Below are positions 140-11,000 of a stretch of DNA of 32,488 nucleotides, piece by piece. The translations under genes and the position numbers were made by a program. Positions within the stretch are counted from its first letter, which is position 1; each line of letters starts with the position of its first letter. The stretch is from a virus, in UHGV virus genome UHGV-0151217. The stretch is one strand, 5' to 3'. A model generated the notes under the pieces. It was not told the origin of the DNA and did not search any database. It saw only the letters and a list, made by a program, of their open reading frames with translations.

Positions 140-277
140 GTGGCGCATCAGTTAAAACTTCTCAAAGATGATTTTTTTGCCAGCGACCAGCAGGCAGTCG
201 CTGTGGCTGACCGTTATCCGCAAGATGTCTTTGCCGAACATACACATGATTTTTGTGAGCTGGTGATTGTGGGGTAG
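140..277 (+). pseudogene. rhaR: rhaR 5' fragment, truncated by prophage insertion
   Basis: From GTG at 140 the frame reads [44 protein letters not shown], the RhaR N-terminus as I recall it. After ...ELVIV the frame runs into unrelated sequence and stops at 275-277, where RhaR should continue for ~240 more residues. Confidence 0.75.
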
Positions 278-427
278 TGATCAATTCTGGGCGGAGTTCG
301 TGCAGCCTGGTAGAACCTGCAAGCCTTGTGTGGCGCGGGGTATGGTGATTTAGTGTGATTCTGGGCGGATTTGTGAGAAATGACCAAAAGTGCCTTTTTT
401 TACGCTTTATTCTGGGCGCTTTTGATC
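278..427. repeat. Left-end array of three direct repeats (candidate transposase-binding sites, attL-like)
   Basis: ATTCTGGGCGGAGTTCGTG (284-302), ATTCTGGGCGGATTTGTG (357-374) and ATTCTGGGCGCTTTTGATC (409-427) lie within 150 bp of the host junction, arranged like the L1-L3 sites of a transposable phage. The sequence is not the Mu consensus. Confidence 0.5.
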
Positions 428-569
428 TGGTGGTGTAAGAAAGCGATCTCCTTTTAAAAGATTTTAAAACTCGTTTAAAAGATTCTAAAGCCCGTTCTAA
501 TCTTGTCTGATTTATTCCTTTCTTATCAGTTGTCGGTATTGGTTTTGTTGGATGTCGCTAGTTAGTTGG

Positions 570-612
570 CAGCATACGCCTACCAAGTAGTAGGCGTTCA
601 TGCTGGTTTTTT
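570..612 (+). terminator. Intrinsic-terminator-like hairpin plus T-run at the 3' end of the repressor gene (+ strand orientation)
   Basis: Stem CAGCAT-ACGCCTAC / GTAGGCGT-ATGCTG (570-605) followed by GTTTTTT (606-612). The repressor stop codon lies inside the stem. Confidence 0.4.
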
Positions 613-1245
613 GCTTACAGGTTTCGTTTCTTGCTCCAGCGTGGCAATGGTCTCACCACCTGGCGACCCAGTCCGTGCACGAGATTCGATGCGTCGCAAA
701 ATCTCTTTATCAGTTTCTTCATTACCAGCCAATGCCATGCAAATAGCGTCTTTAAGCGATTCCCTGATGTTTAGGCTTCTGATGGCAGTCTCTTGTTCGT
801 CCAGGTCGCTGTCGGTCTGCTTAGTTTGCCTGGTTGGTTGCTGTAGGCGTTCCAAGATTCCTTTAATGCCCATATCGCATATTGCACTTATCAGTTGCTC
901 CTTAACTTCTGTGGACGCTCTTTTCAATAACTCGTTAACTAGCTCGTTTGTAATATCGGGAGAAGGCTGCGCTGTTTGATTTGATAGAGAACCTTCTTTG
1001 GTGGTGGGTTCCTTACCGTAAGCGAGCCAATTTAAGCTCACTTGCTCTTTATCTGAGATAAGGCAGGCTATTTTAAAAGAAGGCTCAGTTCCTTTATGAA
1101 TGTAGTTGTTTAAGGTTGAAGGGGGGATTCCCCAATCACTCGCAGCAGTTCTGACACTGCGATTACCTATCAGCTTTACTAAACGCTCTCTGAAACTTTC
1201 TTTTCCCCGGTCGACAAAAGAAAAAGCATCATCATTTCTGGTCAT
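598..1245 (-). CDS. Prophage repressor (Mu c-like position, predicted DNA-binding)
   Basis: 215-aa ORF on the minus strand, divergent from ner, with an RBS (GAGGAAAG) upstream of the ATG. The N-terminal segment DWGIPPSTLNNYIHKG looks like an HTH. Position immediately inside the phage left end matches a Mu-type repressor. Confidence 0.7.
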   Translation of the reverse strand: MTRNDDAFSFVDRGKESFRERLVKLIGNRSVRTAASDWGIPPSTLNNYIHKGTEPSFKIACLISDKEQVSLNWLAYGKEPTTKEGSLSNQTAQPSPDITNELVNELLKRASTEVKEQLISAICDMGIKGILERLQQPTRQTKQTDSDLDEQETAIRSLNIRESLKDAICMALAGNEETDKEILRRIESRARTGSPGGETIATLEQETKPVSKKPA

Positions 1246-1378
1246 TTTTTCTTTCCTCTATAACTAGTTGATTTTAATTGCAAAAACCACATAAAGACCA
1301 AAATCAAAAAGAAAATACAAAGAAAGGGCTATTTTTGCTTTACATGGGCTACATATGGATCAATACTTGTATCCGAAG

Positions 1379-1400
1379 GGATAACACGGCGGTGTTATCC
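1379..1400. promoter_or_regulatory. Perfect inverted repeat in the repressor/ner divergent control region (candidate operator)
   Basis: GGATAACAC-GGCG-GTGTTATCC, a perfect 9-bp dyad, sits 28 bp upstream of the ner start and downstream of a TTTACA (1339-1344) candidate -35. Confidence 0.4.
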
Positions 1401-1427
1401 GCACGGATAATTTTTAAGGGTAACCTA

Positions 1428-1664
1428 ATGATGGTTAGAAATGAAGTAATGAACAAAGACTGGCACCGCGAGTACATCGTTGCCGCTGTGCACACCAAAG
1501 GTTTTACATTGCGTGAACTTTCTGAACGCGCTGGTCTAAAAAAAGACTCTTTAAAAAATGCACTGTATCGCTCATGCCCTAAATATGAACGCATCATAGC
1601 CGATGCTATTGGTGTGGAACCTGCGGAGATCTGGCCAAGCCGGTATGCCAGTAAGGCGGCGTAA
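1428..1664 (+). CDS. ner: Ner-like DNA-binding early regulator
   Basis: The 78-aa product contains DWHREYIVAAVHTKGFTLRELSERAGL...IIADAIGVEPAEIWPSRY, closely resembling the Mu Ner family. RBS AAGGGTAA. The stop overlaps the transposase start. Start may instead be 1449 (MNKDW...). Confidence 0.8.
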   Translation: MMVRNEVMNKDWHREYIVAAVHTKGFTLRELSERAGLKKDSLKNALYRSCPKYERIIADAIGVEPAEIWPSRYASKAA

Positions 1665-3706
1665 TGTTTTATTCAGCCAATGAGCTGGCCGGTCTTCCTC
1701 GTTTGCCCGGTACAGTTCAGGGGGTGCGATGGACGCTCAATCGGATCACAGAGACGCACCCGGAATGGAAGCGCAAGCGTGAAGGCACAAAAGCATTCGA
1801 GTATCACATCGACAGCCTGCCCGCTGAAGCGCAGAAAGTTTTACGTAAGCGCCTGACTCATCAGGTCCTGGAAGATGCACAACTGCCCGCCGTGGTTGAG
1901 CAGAAGGCAGTTAAAAACGTCGCCGTTCGCGATGAACTGGAAGTGATGGTCAAATGCCCGGAACTGGCATTACGCGAAGTCCAGGCACTGACCGACAAGC
2001 AAAAGGCCATTGCTGATGCGCGGATATTGCTGGCTACTGAAGTGCATAAACTGCGTGAATACGCCGGAATGACCAGGAAGGCCGCGTTAAAGCACATCGT
2101 TGATGGTGTGCGCATGGGGGCGTTACCTGACCGCATTATCGAAGCAGCGAATACTGCAAATGCACGTCAGGGAAAGCGAACCGGTGTCAGCACCGGCAGC
2201 CTGGATAGCTGGTACTCCAGCTGGGTGATGGCGCGCGGTGATGCCAATCAGTTACTGGCGTTACTGGCTCCCGGTCATCATAAGGGAACTCCGTGGGAGC
2301 AGGTCTGGTGGCTGAGCGATTTCTTTATGTTCTATCGCTCATGGAAGCGCCCGACCGTTGAATACGCTTATCGCGAGTTTTCAGCCTGGTGGCATGAGAA
2401 ACACGCGAATGATGCGGGAATGCTGGCGGCACTGCCTTCAGTTCACGCAGTAAGACGAGTGTTAAGCAGCGTCCCGGTGATTGTTAAGGAGCGTTTCCGC
2501 TCCACAGGTTCAGCCTGGCGTTCGCTCAATCCCTTTGTGCGGCGCGAGTGGACATCATTACCGGTTAATGCGGTATGGGTCGGGGATGGTCACTGTATGA
2601 AAATGACCGCGTTTAACCCCCTGACCGGCAATATTTTCCGGCCAGAAGTGACGCTGGTTATGGATGCGGGGCAGCGCTTTGTTGTGGGCTGGTCACTGTC
2701 CCTGTCGGAAAACGTGATAGCCGTTGCTGATGCGTTGCGTTACGGCATGGCACAGCACGGGATACCGCTGATTTATTATTCCGATAACGGGGGCGGCGAA
2801 AAAAACCGGGTGCTTGATGCCGATATTACCGGGATTCTGCCCCGGCTGGGTGTGGAGCATCACACGGGGATACCGGGTAACCCGCAGGGGCGCGGGGTAA
2901 TAGAACGGGCAAACAAAGGAATACCCAAAGACGTGGCACTGAGTTTCCAGACGTACTGCGCAAAGGATGCAGACAAGGAAACCGTAATGATGCAGCAACG
3001 GATTATGCAGTCGGCCATTAAGGCCACCCACAAAGGGAAAGAACTGACAAAACGGCAGGTTAAGGCGAGGGATGAAATCCCCACCTTTGAGCAACTGATG
3101 GCCGCCATAGAGCTGGAGGTCAGACGCTATAACAACCGGCCACACAGCAGCCTTCCCCGCAAAGAGGATGGCGAATATTACAGCCCGGCAGCGTATCGCC
3201 GGAAACTGATAAAAGAGCAGAATGTTGAAATTGATTTTCTGTCGCAGGAAGAACTGCATGAAATGTTCAGGCCGGAAGTGACGCGCAAAACATTTCGCGG
3301 GGAAATTCAGTTATTCAACAATATTTATTACTCGTATGAACTGGCCGCAGAGCACGGGAATGAAGTCAGGGTCAGTTACGATATTCATGACGCAAACAGT
3401 GTCATTGTCCGTCGGGCTGATGGCTCTTATATCTGCGATGCCATCTGGAACGGCAATAAGGTTGATGCCTTCGCTAAACCAGTTATCGAGCAAAAACTGG
3501 AGAAACGCGTCAGAGGCCGCATTGCACGGGCCACGCAGAAAATCGAAGAGGCTAAACGCGAGCTTACCCCGGCTATTACGCAGAAATCTGAGTTTAATTT
3601 TGGATTTGGTCTGGAGCGCCCGGAGAAAAAGGAAAAAGAAGAACTTTATTTATTCGCATCTGAACGCGAGCGCAATTTAAAGAAAAACGGCACAAACAAC
3701 CGTTAA
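1664..3706 (+). CDS. DDE transposase (MuA-like)
   Basis: 680-aa ORF immediately after ner with a TAATG stop/start overlap. Size and position match phage Mu transposase A. Confidence 0.85.
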   Translation: MFYSANELAGLPRLPGTVQGVRWTLNRITETHPEWKRKREGTKAFEYHIDSLPAEAQKVLRKRLTHQVLEDAQLPAVVEQKAVKNVAVRDELEVMVKCPELALREVQALTDKQKAIADARILLATEVHKLREYAGMTRKAALKHIVDGVRMGALPDRIIEAANTANARQGKRTGVSTGSLDSWYSSWVMARGDANQLLALLAPGHHKGTPWEQVWWLSDFFMFYRSWKRPTVEYAYREFSAWWHEKHANDAGMLAALPSVHAVRRVLSSVPVIVKERFRSTGSAWRSLNPFVRREWTSLPVNAVWVGDGHCMKMTAFNPLTGNIFRPEVTLVMDAGQRFVVGWSLSLSENVIAVADALRYGMAQHGIPLIYYSDNGGGEKNRVLDADITGILPRLGVEHHTGIPGNPQGRGVIERANKGIPKDVALSFQTYCAKDADKETVMMQQRIMQSAIKATHKGKELTKRQVKARDEIPTFEQLMAAIELEVRRYNNRPHSSLPRKEDGEYYSPAAYRRKLIKEQNVEIDFLSQEELHEMFRPEVTRKTFRGEIQLFNNIYYSYELAAEHGNEVRVSYDIHDANSVIVRRADGSYICDAIWNGNKVDAFAKPVIEQKLEKRVRGRIARATQKIEEAKRELTPAITQKSEFNFGFGLERPEKKEKEELYLFASERERNLKKNGTNNR

Positions 3707-3724
3707 TTTAAAAGGTATTTAATT

Positions 3725-4618
3725 ATGAGTTTAATTACGCAATTAAATGACGTAATGGCCCGTCGCGGCTATACGCAGACCCACGTCGCCCGTGCAATTG
3801 GTCGTAGCAGCGCCGTTATCAACCAGTATTTGCAGGGTAAATATCAGGGCGATATGGCTGATATTGAAGAACGCATTTCTGCCTTTGTGACCCGTGAGCG
3901 GGAAAAGGAAAACAGCCGCCGTATTAAAGCAAAGTTTGTGACCACCGGTATGGCTGCCAAAGGACTGGAGGTGCTGGCCTACGCTCACCTGGAATGTGAA
4001 ATCTGTGTGCTGTATGGCGCAGCTGGCCTTGGCAAAACAATGATTCTGCGTGAATACGCCGCCAGAAACCGGGATGCGGTCCTGATTGAGGCTGACCCAG
4101 GCTATACAGCCAGGACACTGCTTGAGGAGTTGTGCCGCCAGCTGGGGGTAAAGGTTCGCGGCAACATTCACGAACTGATTGATGCCTGTGTGCGCGAACT
4201 GCGTGATTCCGGTCGTCTGCTGATGGTGGACGAAGCTGAACTGCTCCCCTATCGCGCACTGGAGGTTCTGCGCCGTCTGCATGATAAAGCGGGTATCGGG
4301 GTTGTCCTGGCGGGTATGCCTCGTCTTCTGATTAATCTCAAGGGGCGTCGTGGTGAATTTGCGCAGTTATACAGCCGCGTGGCGCTGGCGCTTAACCTGG
4401 GCGACACGCTGGCGCAGGAAGATTTTAACCAGATAGCCACCGGGCTGATGCCGGAAGCAGCAGAACCGGAAATCAGCGAGGCGCTTTACGCGCGCTCGCT
4501 GGGTAATGCCCGCCGCCTGTTCAAACTGGCGCGCGGTGTGTACCGGATTTGCGATATCAGCGATGCGCCGGTCAGTGTGCAGGCCATAGATAAATTCGCA
4601 GAAATGTTAATTCACTGA
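3725..4618 (+). CDS. Transposition ATPase (MuB-like, AAA+)
   Basis: 297 aa with a Walker A motif (GAAGLGKT), a Walker B-like LLMVDEAE, and an N-terminal HTH-like segment. Directly follows the transposase. Confidence 0.85.
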   Translation: MSLITQLNDVMARRGYTQTHVARAIGRSSAVINQYLQGKYQGDMADIEERISAFVTREREKENSRRIKAKFVTTGMAAKGLEVLAYAHLECEICVLYGAAGLGKTMILREYAARNRDAVLIEADPGYTARTLLEELCRQLGVKVRGNIHELIDACVRELRDSGRLLMVDEAELLPYRALEVLRRLHDKAGIGVVLAGMPRLLINLKGRRGEFAQLYSRVALALNLGDTLAQEDFNQIATGLMPEAAEPEISEALYARSLGNARRLFKLARGVYRICDISDAPVSVQAIDKFAEMLIH

Positions 4619-4631
4619 GTAAAGGTCAGGT

Positions 4632-4964
4632 ATGGAACAGATTGCCGTAAAAAAAGAAATTAAAGCACTACGGAATATCGGTCGTAATGGTTGTATTTAT
4701 TTTAATGGAACCCCCGGTGAAATTATTCCGTTTGTTGATTGCTTCGTGCCGGGTGAACTGCGTATTGATTTATATTCCCGTGAACGGGAAATCAATGGAA
4801 CCGGAAATACCAGCGACGACTGGGATGTTGATGAATGCTGTGCGCGATTAATGATTATTCCTTTTGAGCAGACTTTGCAGGGGTTTCGTCGGGCTTACCG
4901 CCTTGCACGCATGTGTGCCCACCTGCCCCGGTATCAGCCCCGACTGGCGTTTACGCTCAGATAA
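4632..4964 (+). CDS. Hypothetical protein (accessory early region)
   Basis: 110-aa ORF, 13 nt after the MuB-like stop. Bracketed by a 19-bp direct repeat (see findings). No family recognised. Confidence 0.5.
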   Translation: MEQIAVKKEIKALRNIGRNGCIYFNGTPGEIIPFVDCFVPGELRIDLYSREREINGTGNTSDDWDVDECCARLMIIPFEQTLQGFRRAYRLARMCAHLPRYQPRLAFTLR

Positions 4965-6539: not shown

Positions 6540-6619
6540 TTTAATTTGTTTTTAATTGTTATTTAAAACAGGCGTAAACCCGCCGGGCTGGCTTACGCCT
6601 GAATCAAGAGGATTTGTAT

Positions 6620-7165
6620 ATGAAAGATAAAGTCTGGGATTTTATTGTTACTCCTGAAGGTTTTGCCACCCGTTCATCTGAGAAGTTAACCAATGTAACG
6701 TTATGGGCGTCATCCTTGCTGGGCTGTCTGGGAGCACCGGGTAATTTTATGGATGTGGTGCTTGATGCCCAGATTGCCGGGAATGCTGTGGCCAGTAGCG
6801 GGGCGTATATTCAGGGGGATTTGTTCGCCATGATGGCGAATGACACAGCAGCGCTGTATATCGCCACACGGAACATACTGACAAGAATAACCATGCTGTC
6901 TGACTGTAAGGATATGGAAGACCTCGCATACATCCTTGAAGATGATTTGCTCACTATTTCAGGCGTGCAGGAATCCCTCCCGCGTCAGTTGCGGTTTATT
7001 GACCTGATGGAGTCATATAAAGATAAGCCTGATTTTTTTCAGATTCGATTCAGTGGAATGGAACTACTGGATGAATATTATCCGCTGGATTCGATTTCCC
7101 GTGATGTGAAGGCGTTCGTTAAATCTGTTGACCGTCATTACCGGAAAACTGAACGTCGTAGTTAA
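6620..7165 (+). CDS. Hypothetical protein, no recognisable family (candidate moron)
   Basis: 181 aa from ATG 6620 with RBS AAGAGGA 6 nt upstream (a TTG at 6614 is less likely). Preceded by one copy of the conserved stem-loop leader and followed by the second copy. Confidence 0.7.
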   Translation: MKDKVWDFIVTPEGFATRSSEKLTNVTLWASSLLGCLGAPGNFMDVVLDAQIAGNAVASSGAYIQGDLFAMMANDTAALYIATRNILTRITMLSDCKDMEDLAYILEDDLLTISGVQESLPRQLRFIDLMESYKDKPDFFQIRFSGMELLDEYYPLDSISRDVKAFVKSVDRHYRKTERRS

Positions 7166-7245
7166 TAAGTCTGTTTTTAATTTTATTTGTATATGGCGTA
7201 AACCCGCCGGGGCTGGCTTACGCCTGAGTCAGGGAGAGTTTATTT

Positions 7246-7428
7246 ATGAATATCGCAAAGCAAAAAAAGTTCGCCCGCGAAATTAATCTGACAATCGTTT
7301 GTTTTAATCGTCTTGCGACCAGTTCTCAATCGACAGCAGATGCTCATTCAGTACCGCAGCCAGAACGAACTCCCCACGTTCCTGAAGGCCGTGCCGGAAG
7401 TTGCGTAATTCAGAATTCAGGATGCTGA
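7246..7428 (+). CDS. Hypothetical small protein (weak)
   Basis: 60-aa ORF with RBS GGGAGAG, directly after the second leader copy. The C-terminal half is S/T/P-rich and not obviously protein-like. Confidence 0.35.
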   Translation: MNIAKQKKFAREINLTIVCFNRLATSSQSTADAHSVPQPERTPHVPEGRAGSCVIQNSGC

Positions 7429-7441
7429 GGTTCAGACGACC

Positions 7442-8152
7442 ATGAAAAATAAATACATCGCCAAAATTAAAAAGCTGTTACGCCTTGCAAGAGGGACATC
7501 AAGCCCGGAAGAAGCCGCTAACGCTATTGCAAAAGCCCAGGCTTATATGCGCCAGCATGGTATCAGCGAAAACGACGCGGAATTGTTCGACATTCAGGAC
7601 GCTGCCAGCGCGGGTGCGCCGAGTGATGCCAGTACACCGCCGCGTTATATGCACATCCTGTGTGACCTGGTCTGTAAAGCCTTCGGTGTCGAGTGTTACA
7701 TCTCCGGCGAATACCGGGCTTCTGGTTCACTCAAACGTTACGTTCGTTTTTATGGTCCTGACAGCCGCCCGGAAATCGCGGCCTACGCGTTTGATGTGCT
7801 TTCCCGTCAGATGATGGCAGAGCGCAAGAAATATCAGGATAAACACTGCAAACGTTGCGGTCCGTCCACGCGGGTGGCCCGTGGCGACCAGTTCTGCGAA
7901 GGCTGGGGCTTTGGTGCCCGTGATGTCATTGCGGTGTATGACGTCTCCCCGGAAGAAAAAAGCCGCCTTGAGCTTTACAGAAAGAACCTGCACAGCACCA
8001 AGGGACTGCGCGACGGGGATATGCGCACCGCTAAAGCGTGCCGGGGTGCAGAGTCTGCCGCTACAGCCGGTTTTATCGCCGGGAAAAACGCCAGACTGCA
8101 TCAGGGGGTTAATGGTCAGAGCAACAAAACGCTGGCACTGGGGAGGGTGTAA
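7442..8152 (+). CDS. DUF2786-like protein (phage accessory protein of unknown function)
   Basis: N-terminus KIKKLLRLARGTSSPEEAANAIAKAQAYMRQHGI matches my memory of the DUF2786 signature. Central cysteines (HCKRCG ... QFCEGWG) suggest a metal-binding module. Confidence 0.7.
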   Translation: MKNKYIAKIKKLLRLARGTSSPEEAANAIAKAQAYMRQHGISENDAELFDIQDAASAGAPSDASTPPRYMHILCDLVCKAFGVECYISGEYRASGSLKRYVRFYGPDSRPEIAAYAFDVLSRQMMAERKKYQDKHCKRCGPSTRVARGDQFCEGWGFGARDVIAVYDVSPEEKSRLELYRKNLHSTKGLRDGDMRTAKACRGAESAATAGFIAGKNARLHQGVNGQSNKTLALGRV

Positions 8153-8154
8153 CG

Positions 8155-8382
8155 ATGGCTTTTAAACTTCTCAGTGTTACCGAAGCAATATACCAGCCGC
8201 CCGGAGAACGCCACGAATACAGGATGAATGACGGTAGCGCGGCGGTTGAGTTCCCTGAATATCCGGGGGCTTCCCGGTGGCGGTTCTATGACAGTGCGGG
8301 ACGCCGGATTATTAAAAGAACCGTGCACAACGCCATGAAAGCTGCTGTAGAACGTCACAAAAGAAGGTTTAACTGCAAATGA
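8155..8382 (+). CDS. Hypothetical protein
   Basis: 75-aa ORF with RBS GGGAGGG. Packed tightly between neighbours. Confidence 0.55.
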   Translation: MAFKLLSVTEAIYQPPGERHEYRMNDGSAAVEFPEYPGASRWRFYDSAGRRIIKRTVHNAMKAAVERHKRRFNCK

Positions 8383-8609
8383 ATATTGAATTTTATGACT
8401 ACGGAGTCACCGCAAAAATCATTGTTACCTGCTGGTTCTGGGAGTTCCGCCGCTATCGCCGGGTTGTGGATGCGGCGCTGTTTGTTGCTCCTGAAGTGCG
8501 CCATGAGAGCGGTGGCGGTCTTTTAATGAGAACAGTCATCACCGGTAAAACGGTTCCGATGTTACGGGCGTTTAAGGTGGCAAAACAGGAGGCTGGCAAT
8601 GGTCATTGA
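8379..8609 (+). CDS. Hypothetical protein
   Basis: 76-aa ORF with ATGA overlap to the upstream stop. Confidence 0.5.
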   Translation: MNIEFYDYGVTAKIIVTCWFWEFRRYRRVVDAALFVAPEVRHESGGGLLMRTVITGKTVPMLRAFKVAKQEAGNGH

Positions 8610-8889
8610 TAAAACGATAACGATAGATGTAGCCATGAATACAGGTCTGGCGCTTATCGGTTATGGCTATATCATTTTTATGTCATTCAGGTGGTTGATT
8701 TCTTCGTTCTTTAAGCAATGTGAAAAACGTCGCCGCAAAGACAAGCGCGTGAAGGCGCTAAATGCGTTTAATGACGCTTTTGATATTGACCGTATGCAGC
8801 AGGGAGATCCGGCACGCGTAATTACCCTGGGAGATATCGTGATTTTGGTATACCGGAGTGAAAAAAATGAGCAGGAGGCGGCGCAGTGA
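8599..8889 (+). CDS. Hypothetical small membrane protein
   Basis: 96 aa, RBS AGGAGG 7 nt upstream. One predicted N-terminal transmembrane segment (LALIGYGYIIFMSFRWLISSFF) followed by a basic stretch. Confidence 0.55.
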   Translation: MVIDKTITIDVAMNTGLALIGYGYIIFMSFRWLISSFFKQCEKRRRKDKRVKALNAFNDAFDIDRMQQGDPARVITLGDIVILVYRSEKNEQEAAQ

Positions 8890-9194
8890 ACCAGCAAACC
8901 AGAATAAGCGATAAGAGCCTGACCAGACTGATTGCCGATGCTGACAAAATGCTTGATATGCGCGGGCCGATTGTAGACAGAGAGTGGTGGACGCTCTTAC
9001 GGCAGTCCCTGCTGGAGCTTCAGGAATACCGGAGAGCAGGAATCATTCCGGTGACACCGGGAGCAAAAGAGCATCAGCTCAGGGAGCTGGTTAATAAATT
9101 ACGCGATGTGGCAATCAAATACCACGGAACGCAGCAATTACGGGCGCATATTGCAAAAACAGTAATCCGTTCAGGACTGATTTCAGGGGAATAA
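8886..9194 (+). CDS. Hypothetical protein
   Basis: 102-aa ORF from a GTG start overlapping the upstream stop (GTGA), with AGGAGG upstream. Confidence 0.5.
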   Translation: MNQQTRISDKSLTRLIADADKMLDMRGPIVDREWWTLLRQSLLELQEYRRAGIIPVTPGAKEHQLRELVNKLRDVAIKYHGTQQLRAHIAKTVIRSGLISGE

Positions 9195-9198
9195 TCAG

Positions 9199-9381
9199 AT
9201 GAAAAACCGTAAAGCAAAAATTCTTTTGACCTGTAGAAACGCTCGCGGCGTCCAGCAATGGCTAAAACTCAGTAACCGCAGAATGGGTTTGTTCACAAAC
9301 ACAGCTGATATTGTGATGTGTTCCCTTAACAAGCCCAGCGCAGCCCAAAATCGCTGGAAGAATCACACTAACGCAAAGTAA
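9199..9381 (+). CDS. Hypothetical small basic protein
   Basis: 60-aa ORF with RBS CAGGGGAA. Confidence 0.45.
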   Translation: MKNRKAKILLTCRNARGVQQWLKLSNRRMGLFTNTADIVMCSLNKPSAAQNRWKNHTNAK

Positions 9382-9399
9382 TTAAATAATAACCAACAG

Positions 9400-9445
9400 C
9401 AGACCAAAACATATGTTTTGGTCTGCCAAAAATGATGTTTTGGTC
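9400..9445. promoter_or_regulatory. Operator-like site: 26-bp perfect palindrome plus a third half-site
   Basis: CAGACCAAAACAT|ATGTTTTGGTCTG (9400-9425) and a further GTTTTGGTC at 9437-9445, just downstream of an AT-rich -10-like stretch (TAATTAAATAAT) and directly upstream of ATG 9449. Confidence 0.4.
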
Positions 9446-9448
9446 ATT

Positions 9449-9727
9449 ATGAAGATTGAACAAATCGGAATGGCAGCTTTCAGGCAACAGGCTGAAAGCG
9501 GTGGCGTGGATGAGTTCGTCGTGCAGCGGTTCGGGGGTGTGTATCACCTCTTCGCTGTGAATCGCCGCGCCGGGGTGTCCTATTTTCTACAGGAACGCCG
9601 TGGCGATTACAAGACGTGGCTGTCTCTTGACCGTGCCGCCGCGTTCCTGTCGGGGATTGGTGTTTCACGTTTTACCGTGCGTTTTGAGGATAACAAACAT
9701 GCAGAAAAAGATGATCGGGGCCATTAA
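9449..9727 (+). CDS. Hypothetical protein (start uncertain)
   Basis: ORF open from 9413 with in-frame ATGs at 9413, 9449 and 9470 and no clear RBS. 3' end overlaps gemA by 29 nt. Confidence 0.4.
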   Translation: MKIEQIGMAAFRQQAESGGVDEFVVQRFGGVYHLFAVNRRAGVSYFLQERRGDYKTWLSLDRAAAFLSGIGVSRFTVRFEDNKHAEKDDRGH

Positions 9728-10112
9728 AGCCGGTCAGGCATATCTGGGGTGGGATGATGCTCTTTATCGCCAGACACTGATCCGCCTGACAGGTAAAACC
9801 AGCACCACACGCTGCAATCTCGATGAACTGCGCATCATCCGGGAATACATGCACGAACAGGGATTTCCGCGCAAGGCCCCCGCTGGTAAAGGTCGCCGCC
9901 CTCGTGTTGCAATGAGCAGAAAATCGGTATTATCCAAAATTGAAGCGTTACTGGCTGATGCCGGTCGTTCCTGGGCGTATGCGGAAGGACTGGCATCTCA
10001 CATGTATAAGCAACATGTGATCGAATGGCTGACGGATGAACAGCTTTTCGGGGTGATGGTGGCGCTGACAAAAGACGCCAGAAAACGAGTCAGAGCAGCA
10101 CGTAAACAATAA
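9699..10112 (+). CDS. gemA: GemA-like regulatory protein (DUF1018 family)
   Basis: 137 aa from ATG 9699 with RBS GAGGA. MIGAIKAGQAYLGWDDALYRQTLIRLTGKTS... matches the GemA/DUF1018 pattern, and the position before Mor/C matches Mu. Confidence 0.7.
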   Translation: MQKKMIGAIKAGQAYLGWDDALYRQTLIRLTGKTSTTRCNLDELRIIREYMHEQGFPRKAPAGKGRRPRVAMSRKSVLSKIEALLADAGRSWAYAEGLASHMYKQHVIEWLTDEQLFGVMVALTKDARKRVRAARKQ

Positions 10113-10118
10113 AGAATC

Positions 10119-10145
10119 AGCCCCTGCCTTGCAGGGGCTTTTTTG
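10119..10145 (+). terminator. Rho-independent terminator after gemA
   Basis: AGCCCCTGC-CTT-GCAGGGGCT hairpin followed by TTTTTT. Confidence 0.6.
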
Positions 10146-10150
10146 TGGTC

Positions 10151-10178
10151 TGTACAGGCGATCATGTATGGCTATAAT
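10151..10178 (+). promoter_or_regulatory. Candidate sigma70 promoter upstream of the Mor/C-family gene (possible middle promoter)
   Basis: Perfect TATAAT at 10173-10178 with TGTACA 16 bp upstream, 30 bp before ATG 10208. Confidence 0.35.
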
Positions 10179-10207
10179 AACAGTAAGTTACTACCGGAGA
10201 CGCCATC

Positions 10208-10675
10208 ATGCAGACCTTCAGTGAAACAGATCTTCGCGATGCGCAGGCACTGCTGCCCGATTCCGTGCAGCAACTGATTAGCGTGATTGGCTTCCCCGCC
10301 ATGACCCGGTTGATTCGTTCTTTTGGTGGCGTGACGTTAAGCGGTAAAACCGGCGCACACGCCGAACGTACTGGCGGTGTCCATGCCCTGTTACATGACG
10401 TGCTGACCGAAGACGAAATCAACAAACTGATCCGCTTTCTTGGCGGTGCTCCGTTTTACATTCCCCGTTGCGATCATGCGTTACGTGCTCTGCGTAACGC
10501 CCGTTTTATGGCTGATTTACAGCAGCATATCAGAGACGGATTTTCACACCGGCAGGCGCTGGCACTGCTTTGTCCCCGTTACGGGATTTCAGACCGGTAC
10601 GCATGGCAGCTGATACACCGACGACAAAAACAGACTTCGCTGAAAAGCCCCACCCAGGTGGGGCTTTTTGATTAA
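10208..10675 (+). CDS. Mor/C-family transcriptional activator of late (or middle) genes
   Basis: C-terminal LIRFLGGAPFYIPRCDHALRALRNARFMADL...YGISDRYAWQLIHRR aligns with the Mu Mor/C HTH region (...HLGGGQVYIPRG...). Which of Mor or C it corresponds to is unresolved. Confidence 0.8.
   Translation: MQTFSETDLRDAQALLPDSVQQLISVIGFPAMTRLIRSFGGVTLSGKTGAHAERTGGVHALLHDVLTEDEINKLIRFLGGAPFYIPRCDHALRALRNARFMADLQQHIRDGFSHRQALALLCPRYGISDRYAWQLIHRRQKQTSLKSPTQVGLFD
10646..10670 (+). terminator. Rho-independent terminator at the end of the Mor/C-family gene
   Basis: AGCCCCACC-CAG-GTGGGGCT hairpin followed by TTTTT, overlapping the last codons. Confidence 0.55.
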
Positions 10676-10701
10676 TGGGCCTCAGAAAAAAGGAGACACT
10701 T

Positions 10702-10980
10702 ATGACCAACTATACGGCACTTGGCGAGTATACAGCCTACTCAGAGCAGGCCCGGGATGCTGCCGGACGCCGCTTCGCTTATATGAAAAATCTGGCCAGC
10801 CAGCTAAACCGAATGGCCGAACAACCGGATATGGTTGTTCAGGAAGAAGCGTTGCAGTGTGCCATTGCTGACATCATCGCCAGCGAAAACGAGATGCGTG
10901 CAGCGATGGAAAAGGCGAACGCCTCTGCTCCGCTTTGTAATAAACCTCTTATTACGCCGGATTCTCTTTCCCGCTTCTGA
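10702..10980 (+). CDS. Hypothetical protein
   Basis: 92 aa from ATG 10702 with RBS AAGGAG. The ORF is open from 10675. Confidence 0.5.
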   Translation: MTNYTALGEYTAYSEQARDAAGRRFAYMKNLASQLNRMAEQPDMVVQEEALQCAIADIIASENEMRAAMEKANASAPLCNKPLITPDSLSRF

Positions 10981-11000
10981 TTTATCACCCCGCCGCCGCG

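Follow-up and report, generated by a model that had tools for sequence, protein, structure and literature searches.

Putative transposase-binding sites unlike those of Mu at the left end of a Mu-like prophage in Escherichia coli rhaR

Our analysis of the virus genome UHGV-0151217, a stretch of 32 488 nt referred to here as the window, indicates that three direct repeats near its left end very probably serve as left-end transposase docking sites in a Mu-like prophage that lies within the Escherichia coli gene rhaR, with a recognition sequence unlike that of Mu. We hold it to be highly probable that the region from position 268 to ~430 is the attL of an intact Mu-like transposable prophage and that the repeats are its L1, L2 and L3 transposase sites. 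Sites of this kind are an ordinary feature of such viruses and would not surprise a specialist, although the particular site, with the core TTCTGGGC, appears to be undescribed so far. The more interesting by-products of the study are a target duplication of 4 bp and the diversification of the core sequence within one and the same register.

Insertion site and left boundary

Positions 1–270 of the window correspond to the rhaS-rhaR region of E. coli, at 100 % identity in thousands of genomes. Prophage sequence matching the window from 267/268 onwards was found in 34 complete E. coli genomes, at chromosomal sites that are unrelated; the annotation of the matching prophage includes a 'Mu transposase C-terminal domain-containing protein', one AAA ATPase and a pair of HTH proteins. 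In these other genomes prophage identity starts at 267/268, and identity to host rhaR extends to 270. We compared 15 left junctions at distinct, unrelated chromosomal sites (the window, together with locus L070, and loci L001–L007, L064–L069 and L071), and all of them begin TGTGGGGTAG, so that the left terminus of the prophage reads 5'-TGT at positions 268–270 on the plus strand, including the terminal TG. The left termini of relatives in Pantoea, Sodalis and Serratia likewise read TGTGGGG. Judged from these junctions, the prophage starts at window position 268 with the canonical 5'-TG. The original prediction, which had assumed the same terminal dinucleotide, set the junction at 270/271 and has to be corrected to 267/268, as all independent insertions begin T268-G269-T270. 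It was misplaced because TGT is shared by rhaR and the phage terminus, and the junction at 270/271 was rejected in view of this microhomology at 268–270. Exact termini at 15 insertion sites are what would be expected if the terminal sites of the two ends, L1 and R1, position the cleavage.

Other E. coli genomes carry copies with 99.8–100 % identity over window positions 267–4700 elsewhere in the chromosome, and the occurrence of such near-identical copies at different sites suggests recent mobility. The last four host bases, TGAT (rhaR, 264–267), are predicted to be one copy of the target duplication, on the evidence of the ten paired insertions of the prophage family described below. The window ends ~3 kb short of the right end of the prophage, and its own right junction is predicted to read ...CGCGAAGTTACA followed by TGATTGTCTGGCGCGG. 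A metagenome-assembly contig (L070; ENA ERZ773421, NODE_33, 71 kb), probably the source of the window, shares its rhaR/prophage junction and, judged by prophage length, should stop short of the right end. This insertion in rhaR was not found among the complete E. coli genomes of the collection.

Repeats of the left end

A repeat search returned a family of direct repeats at the left end of the window, at 284–298, 358–372 and 409–423, with spacings of 74 and 51 nt. Within it, the exact 10-mer ATTCTGGGCG occurs in three copies, the only ones in the 32.5 kb window, all on the plus strand with starts at 284, 358 and 409 and all inside 135 nt; the second copy had previously been placed at 357, whereas the coordinates given for the other two were right. 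Allowing one mismatch produced no extra match to ATTCTGGGCG anywhere in the window. It is also the sole exact 10-mer present three times inside 150 nt in the whole window, and when the window was simulated 100 times with a first-order Markov model, no 10-mer triple cluster within that distance arose. Elsewhere the 7 nt core, TTCTGGG/CCCAGAA, is found at about background frequency: the prophage portion of the window contains four more matches, and the host flanks of the loci that we fetched contain a handful. Recurrence of the motif throughout the host genome had been named in advance as an observation that would speak against end sites, and in these host flanks the motif was at roughly background frequency and not enriched. 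Neither was it found in the repressor–ner intergenic region at 1246–1427.

Alignment of the six sites of the two ends revealed conserved positions over a stretch of about -11 to +13, counted from the first T of TTCTGGG, with the consensus ..tT...G.t..ATTCTGGGCg..TTt. A site of ~22–25 bp would be consistent with the 22 bp spacing of R1 and R2 and with a bipartite contact. We place L1, the terminal putative transposase-binding site, at 274–298 on the plus strand, with the core ATTCTGGGCG at 284–293; TTCTGGGC lies 18–25 nt from the terminus, the offset is equal to that of R1, and the core is kept in relatives. The second and third putative sites, L2 at 348–372 (core 358–367) and L3 at 399–423 (core 409–418), are on the same strand and were delimited by the repeat search and the left-end alignment.

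The spacer between L1 and L2 contains a conserved block, CCTGCAAGCCTTGTGTGGCGCGGGG (316–340, plus strand), in which the columns TG.CG.GG are constant in 11 left ends while the rest of the spacer has diverged, and which could be a pac or host-factor element. The first part of this block, TGCAAGCCT, is also present in the L1–L2 spacer of Mu, at Mu position 84, a 9-mer match that may be due to chance. Between L2 and L3, an A-tract/T-tract block (AAATGA...TTTTTTT; 378–408, plus strand) is kept across genera in the left-end alignment of relatives, and may aid L2–L3 geometry, either as intrinsically bent DNA or as a host-factor site. Immediately inside L3, at 453–494, are two tandem 21 bp units, TTTAAAAGATTTTAAAACTCG and TTTAAAAGATTCTAAAGCCCG; this left-end-only element, with its TTTAAAAG repeats, is a candidate pac or regulatory site. 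TTTAAA-type motifs also come after L3 in the TTCTGGAC and TTTGATAC lineages described below.

Right end and comparison with Mu

The right end, which lies outside the window, was read from near-identical prophages, seven of which were fetched complete from E. coli genomes (L001–L007); for most of its length, L001 shows 99.6–99.8 % identity to the window. In all seven, each end has three copies of TTCTGGG, oriented (+,+,+) at the left and (+,-,-) at the right, and the spacing is constant, the cores being offset from the termini by 18, 92 and 143 nt at the left and by 18, 40 (inverted) and 69 nt (flipped) at the right. R1 is inverted and sits 18–25 nt from the terminus like L1, R2 lies 22 bp further in, and R3 has the opposite orientation. 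L1 and R1 are mirror images at equal distance from the termini (TGTGGGGTAGTGATCAATTCTGGGC at the left and, as the reverse complement, TGTAACTTCGCGATTTTTTCTGGGC at the right). Every right end read terminates CGCGAAGTTACA and the independent right junctions all finish GAAGTTACA; the element termini are 5'-TG...CA-3', with TGTGGGG... at the 15 left junctions and ...GAAGTTACA at the right junctions read. Eight more right-end loci share the same terminal sequence, one of them with a GGAC variant, and among the right ends of E. coli copies variation is found in the spacers and none in the cores. Inverted copies of the motif at the other prophage end, on which the original prediction was to stand or fall, are present in all seven full prophages and in the eight additional loci.

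Mu carries three MuA sites at each end, with spacings that differ (Craigie, Mizuuchi and Mizuuchi 1984, summarised in PMC3145075). Using a MuA-site pattern on the Mu ends (L008, L009), we recovered L1, L2 and L3 as direct copies at 7, 112 and 152, R2 at 29 and R3 at 57–76 on the opposite strand. Mu R1, which adjoins the terminus, is too degenerate for this pattern. Compared directly with the Mu ends, the prophage displays the same asymmetric 3+3 layout, as both have a terminal 5'-TG...CA-3', three sites per end with end-specific spacing, an L1 that lies by the terminus apart from L2 and L3, contiguous R1 and R2 with a periodicity of ~22 bp and a flipped R3. The Mu-like spacing that had been recognized in the three left-end repeats therefore holds and extends to the right end.

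The site sequences are unrelated, with the core TTCTGGGC in our prophage and a CGAAA-type core (...RCGAAA) in Mu. The MuA-site pattern gave no match at the six sites, with weak off-register ones only, which bears out the earlier remark that the repeats are unlike the Mu consensus. The two elements further differ in the gap between L1 and L2 (74 nt here versus 105 in Mu), in the repressor (CI-type versus Mu c-type) and in the target duplication (4 bp versus 5). No nucleotide similarity to Mu was detected, and the blastn matches included neither Mu nor D108.

Conservation among relatives

Forty loci were retrieved from other genomes using the transposase as a probe. A group from Pantoea, Sodalis and Serratia, with transposases 41–61 % identical, has three (A/T)TTCTGGAC cores per left end at the same offsets, and in an alignment of 11 left ends the invariant or nearly invariant columns were those of the terminus, the three cores, the L1–L2 spacer block and the A/T-tract block, the rest having diverged. 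In a sister group, comprising Klebsiella, Raoultella, Pluralibacter, Limnobaculum and an Sp18-like E. coli phage (LC727895.1), the core is TTTGATAC, situated 18–25 nt from the TGT terminus and present three times per left end. Across the wider family the register is thus conserved and the sequence in that register lineage-specific, which is the pattern expected of sites co-evolving with a DNA-binding protein. In the remaining relatives, among them Serratia PL17, Pectobacterium, Morganella, Klebsiella MISC125, Erwinia, P. stewartii, Yersinia pekkanenii and Vibrio, a strict de novo search for TG followed by 15 nt and a triple core gave no convincing result.

Where the core changes from G to A, the change occurs at all sites of one end together. 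At the right end of locus L061 (10550–10643), three sites all read GGAC and not GGGC, and the baseplate J protein is identical to that of the window; at the left end of L073 (1260–1420; E. coli strain C5), all three sites read GGAC and the transposase is 91 % identical to that of the window. These E. coli GGAC copies point to a mosaic exchange of ends, or to a tolerated G/A at this core position. The position is possibly not discriminated, because strain C5 pairs GGAC left sites with so similar a transposase. The distinct specificity is established against Mu and the TTTGATAC lineage, and not between close variants.

PMC2628397, citing earlier work that compared Mu-like prophages, lists six putative transposase sites for Sp18. 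The Sp18-type element of LC727895.1, a Mu-like phage inside a Stx1a phage, has the same host species as our prophage, the same TGT terminus, an 8 bp core at nt 18–25 of both ends, three direct left copies and an annotated 4 bp duplication, but its core is TTTGATAC in place of TTCTGGGC, and its transposase is 43 % identical overall and 33–36 % identical in the I-beta/I-gamma-equivalent region. The right terminus of this phage (L052, 41400–41434) reads ...GCGCTATA in place of an expected ...TACA (reverse complement TATAGCGCGG; phage VW-6B has TGTAGCGCGG); here the terminal CA has changed to TA, a mutation that may have immobilized this copy. The closest sequenced phage by transposase is Pseudomonas phage VW-6B (MF975721.1; 49 % identical), and none of the isolated phages in the collection had a transposase above that identity. 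Its right end, TGTAGCGCGGCGAAAAATTCTGGAC, resembles ours in carrying a core (TTCTGGAC) at 18–25 with further copies inside, but differs in the GGAC variant of that core; the deposited record is without a left end, and the annotated tape-measure gene is much longer than that of the window. The record of Klebsiella phage ST405-OXA48phi1.1 is trimmed at both ends, and of the sequenced relatives only the VW-6B right end was usable.

To call lineage-specific repeats at the ends of Mu-like prophages transposase sites is standard practice, followed before for FluMu, Pnm1, Sp18, BcepMu and KS10 (PMC2628397). The putative TnpA-binding repeats of BcepMu and of the Burkholderia phage KS10 were recognized by reasoning like ours: they are short and imperfect, stand at both ends with inverted orientation between them, and are unlike the Mu consensus, matching a divergent transposase (PMC2628397). 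KS10 differs in having four sites, without TG...CA termini and without a flanking duplication, compared with the six sites, TG...CA termini and 4 bp duplication described here. The papers on SfMu and SuMu contained no att-site description.

Transposase and early genes

The early genes follow the order of Mu, namely repressor (reverse strand), ner, A and B. A CI-type HTH repressor of 215 aa (598–1245, minus strand; Pfam PF07022) is in the position of Mu c, and the plus strand encodes a Ner-like small DNA-binding protein of 78 aa (1428–1664; PF13693 HTH_35, E 9e-26), a MuA-family DDE transposase of 680 aa (1664–3706; Mu-transpos_C and HTH_Tnp_Mu_1), which is the proposed binder of L1–L3, and a MuB-like AAA+ ATPase of 297 aa (3725–4618; AAA_22 and TniB). 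The remainder of the window carries Mor, lysis, head and contractile-tail genes and reaches baseplate J, matching the annotated copy L001.

A transposase profile of 17 family members was aligned with MuA by hhalign at 98.2 % probability (E 4e-14, ~23 % identity), and the alignment was collinear, residues 1–598 corresponding to MuA 1–558 with the N-terminal DNA-binding part included. A phmmer comparison of the transposase with MuA structures was marginal (E ~6e-4). D308, D374 and E414 are invariant in 17 transposase relatives and align with the catalytic residues D269, D336 and E392 of MuA. Because the transposase is only ~23 % identical to MuA and the Mu consensus is absent from the repeats, the distinct end specificity suggested in the original prediction is plausible and indeed to be expected.

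The Mu end-binding domains of MuA are I-beta and I-gamma. The equivalent region of the transposase is 99–100 % conserved among E. coli copies that share TTCTGGGC sites, even where the C-terminal part falls to 82 %, and it is the most diverged part of the protein in lineages with other sites (28–48 % versus 48–74 % in the catalytic core). This pattern fits the proposed binding by the transposase, although it is no proof of it.

The transposase retains a Mu I-alpha-type N-terminal domain (PF02316), whereas the repressor is a CI-type HTH protein (PF07022). In Mu, the repressor and MuA share an I-alpha-type domain and compete for the operator/enhancer, and competition of this style may not be applicable to our prophage. 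A perfect inverted repeat, GGATAACACGGCGGTGTTATCC, is present at 1379–1400 in the repressor–ner intergenic region and is followed by GGATAA; it is probably an operator, and its sequence is unrelated to the end repeats.

Target duplication

All ten paired insertions (L001–L007, L054/L064, L057/L067 and L058/L068) were flanked by 4 bp direct repeats, which read ACTT, CGGT, CACT, GACA, AAAT, CATT, GAGA, CACC, GTAC and TTTG. We rejected a 5 bp duplication, in which either the terminal A of ...ACA or the initial T of TGT would be assigned to the target, because the fifth base is mismatched in five of the ten and because empty sites in cirA and yfcC-pta, rebuilt on the assumption of 4 bp, matched the wild-type sequence at 400/400 positions, unbroken, in many genomes. 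A 4 bp duplication is also annotated for the Sp18-like phage by the depositors of LC727895.1. That this prophage family duplicates four target bases, and not the five of Mu, is strongly supported by comparison of the insertions. A 2021 study of transposable phages puts the duplication at 5 bp in Mu and at 6 bp in B3, and relies on a '5/6 bp' scar to find such prophages (PMC8705779). Among the searchable papers, we found none mentioning a 4 bp duplication for Mu-like phages.

Discussion

We infer the binding of the transposase to L1–L3 from the architecture of the ends and their conservation. In the mechanism that we propose, L1–L3 would be sites of ~22–25 bp with the core (A/T)TTCTGG(G/A)C, each occupied by one monomer of the transposase encoded at 1664–3706, and contact would be made, by analogy with MuA, through the I-beta/I-gamma-equivalent region; that the core is read by this region is an assumption, the alignment with MuA being of low confidence there. 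Together with the contiguous R1 and R2, inverted relative to L1, and the flipped R3, these sites would assemble a synaptic complex, of which L1, R1 and R2 would form the core, with L2, L3 and R3 accessory, if the Mu arrangement applies. The complex would nick the DNA at the terminal 5'-TG...CA-3', which lies 17 nt beyond the cores of L1 and R1, with cleavage at CA-3' expected from Mu to precede strand transfer, and the ends would then be joined to target DNA with a 4 bp stagger.

Other roles for the repeats have to be weighed against this. Operator or regulatory sites at the left end, bound by the repressor or by the Ner-like protein, might be expected where the repeats are found, ~170 nt past the 3' end of the repressor gene, and the Mu repressor has some affinity for the Mu ends. 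However, the motif is absent from the expected divergent-promoter region at 1246–1427, where a separate inverted repeat is present at 1379, and inverted copies are found 35 kb away at the right end, at the same distance from the terminus, where they would be needless for a local operator. A CI-type HTH repressor also has no detected domain in common with the transposase, and we regard a regulatory role as very unlikely. It is just as improbable that the repeats are a pac signal for terminase, even though Mu-type packaging begins at the left end, the Mu pac sits within the Mu left end and small-terminase sites are often direct-repeat arrays. One end would suffice for packaging, yet three more copies are present at the right end, where R1 mirrors the register of L1 relative to the cleavage site, and the left-end-only blocks at 316–340 and 453–494 (TTTAAAAG repeats) are better candidates for pac.

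The probability that the repeats are a chance cluster, or the functionless relic of a local duplication, is close to negligible. The raw count is unimpressive alone, since a 10-mer with at most one mismatch is expected about three times per window, but the three copies are exact and are crowded into a span for which the simulations gave no parallel. Their position, number, spacing and orientation are moreover kept across genera in which the spacers have diverged, and mirror copies stand at the right end. Recognition by the transposase is the reading that we prefer. The study provides a concrete and testable site definition for a transposase without a characterized close relative; it also fixes the left boundary at window position 268 and shows that the element has all the cis-acting parts expected in an active transposable phage.

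On balance, and with some reservation, we lean towards the view that this family and the Sp18 type form a branch of Mu-family transposable phages with a 4 bp stagger, in which end recognition has diversified within a fixed register (nt 18–25: TTCTGGGC, TTCTGGAC or TTTGATAC). If true, this would constitute a natural set of Mu-type transposition systems in one host species that are putatively orthogonal to one another. Lineages that differ in sequence at the same register offer material on how MuA-type specificity changes, and perhaps for orthogonal mini-Mu tools. A 4 bp duplication implies a slightly different spacing of active sites in the strand-transfer complex, and the 4 bp scar matters for prophage-boundary finders, which seek scars of 5 or 6 bp.

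Outside the left end, comparison of the window with L001 revealed that the semi-essential early region (6600–11000) is mosaic, with gaps and stretches of 94–96 % identity, which is typical of module exchange among these prophages.
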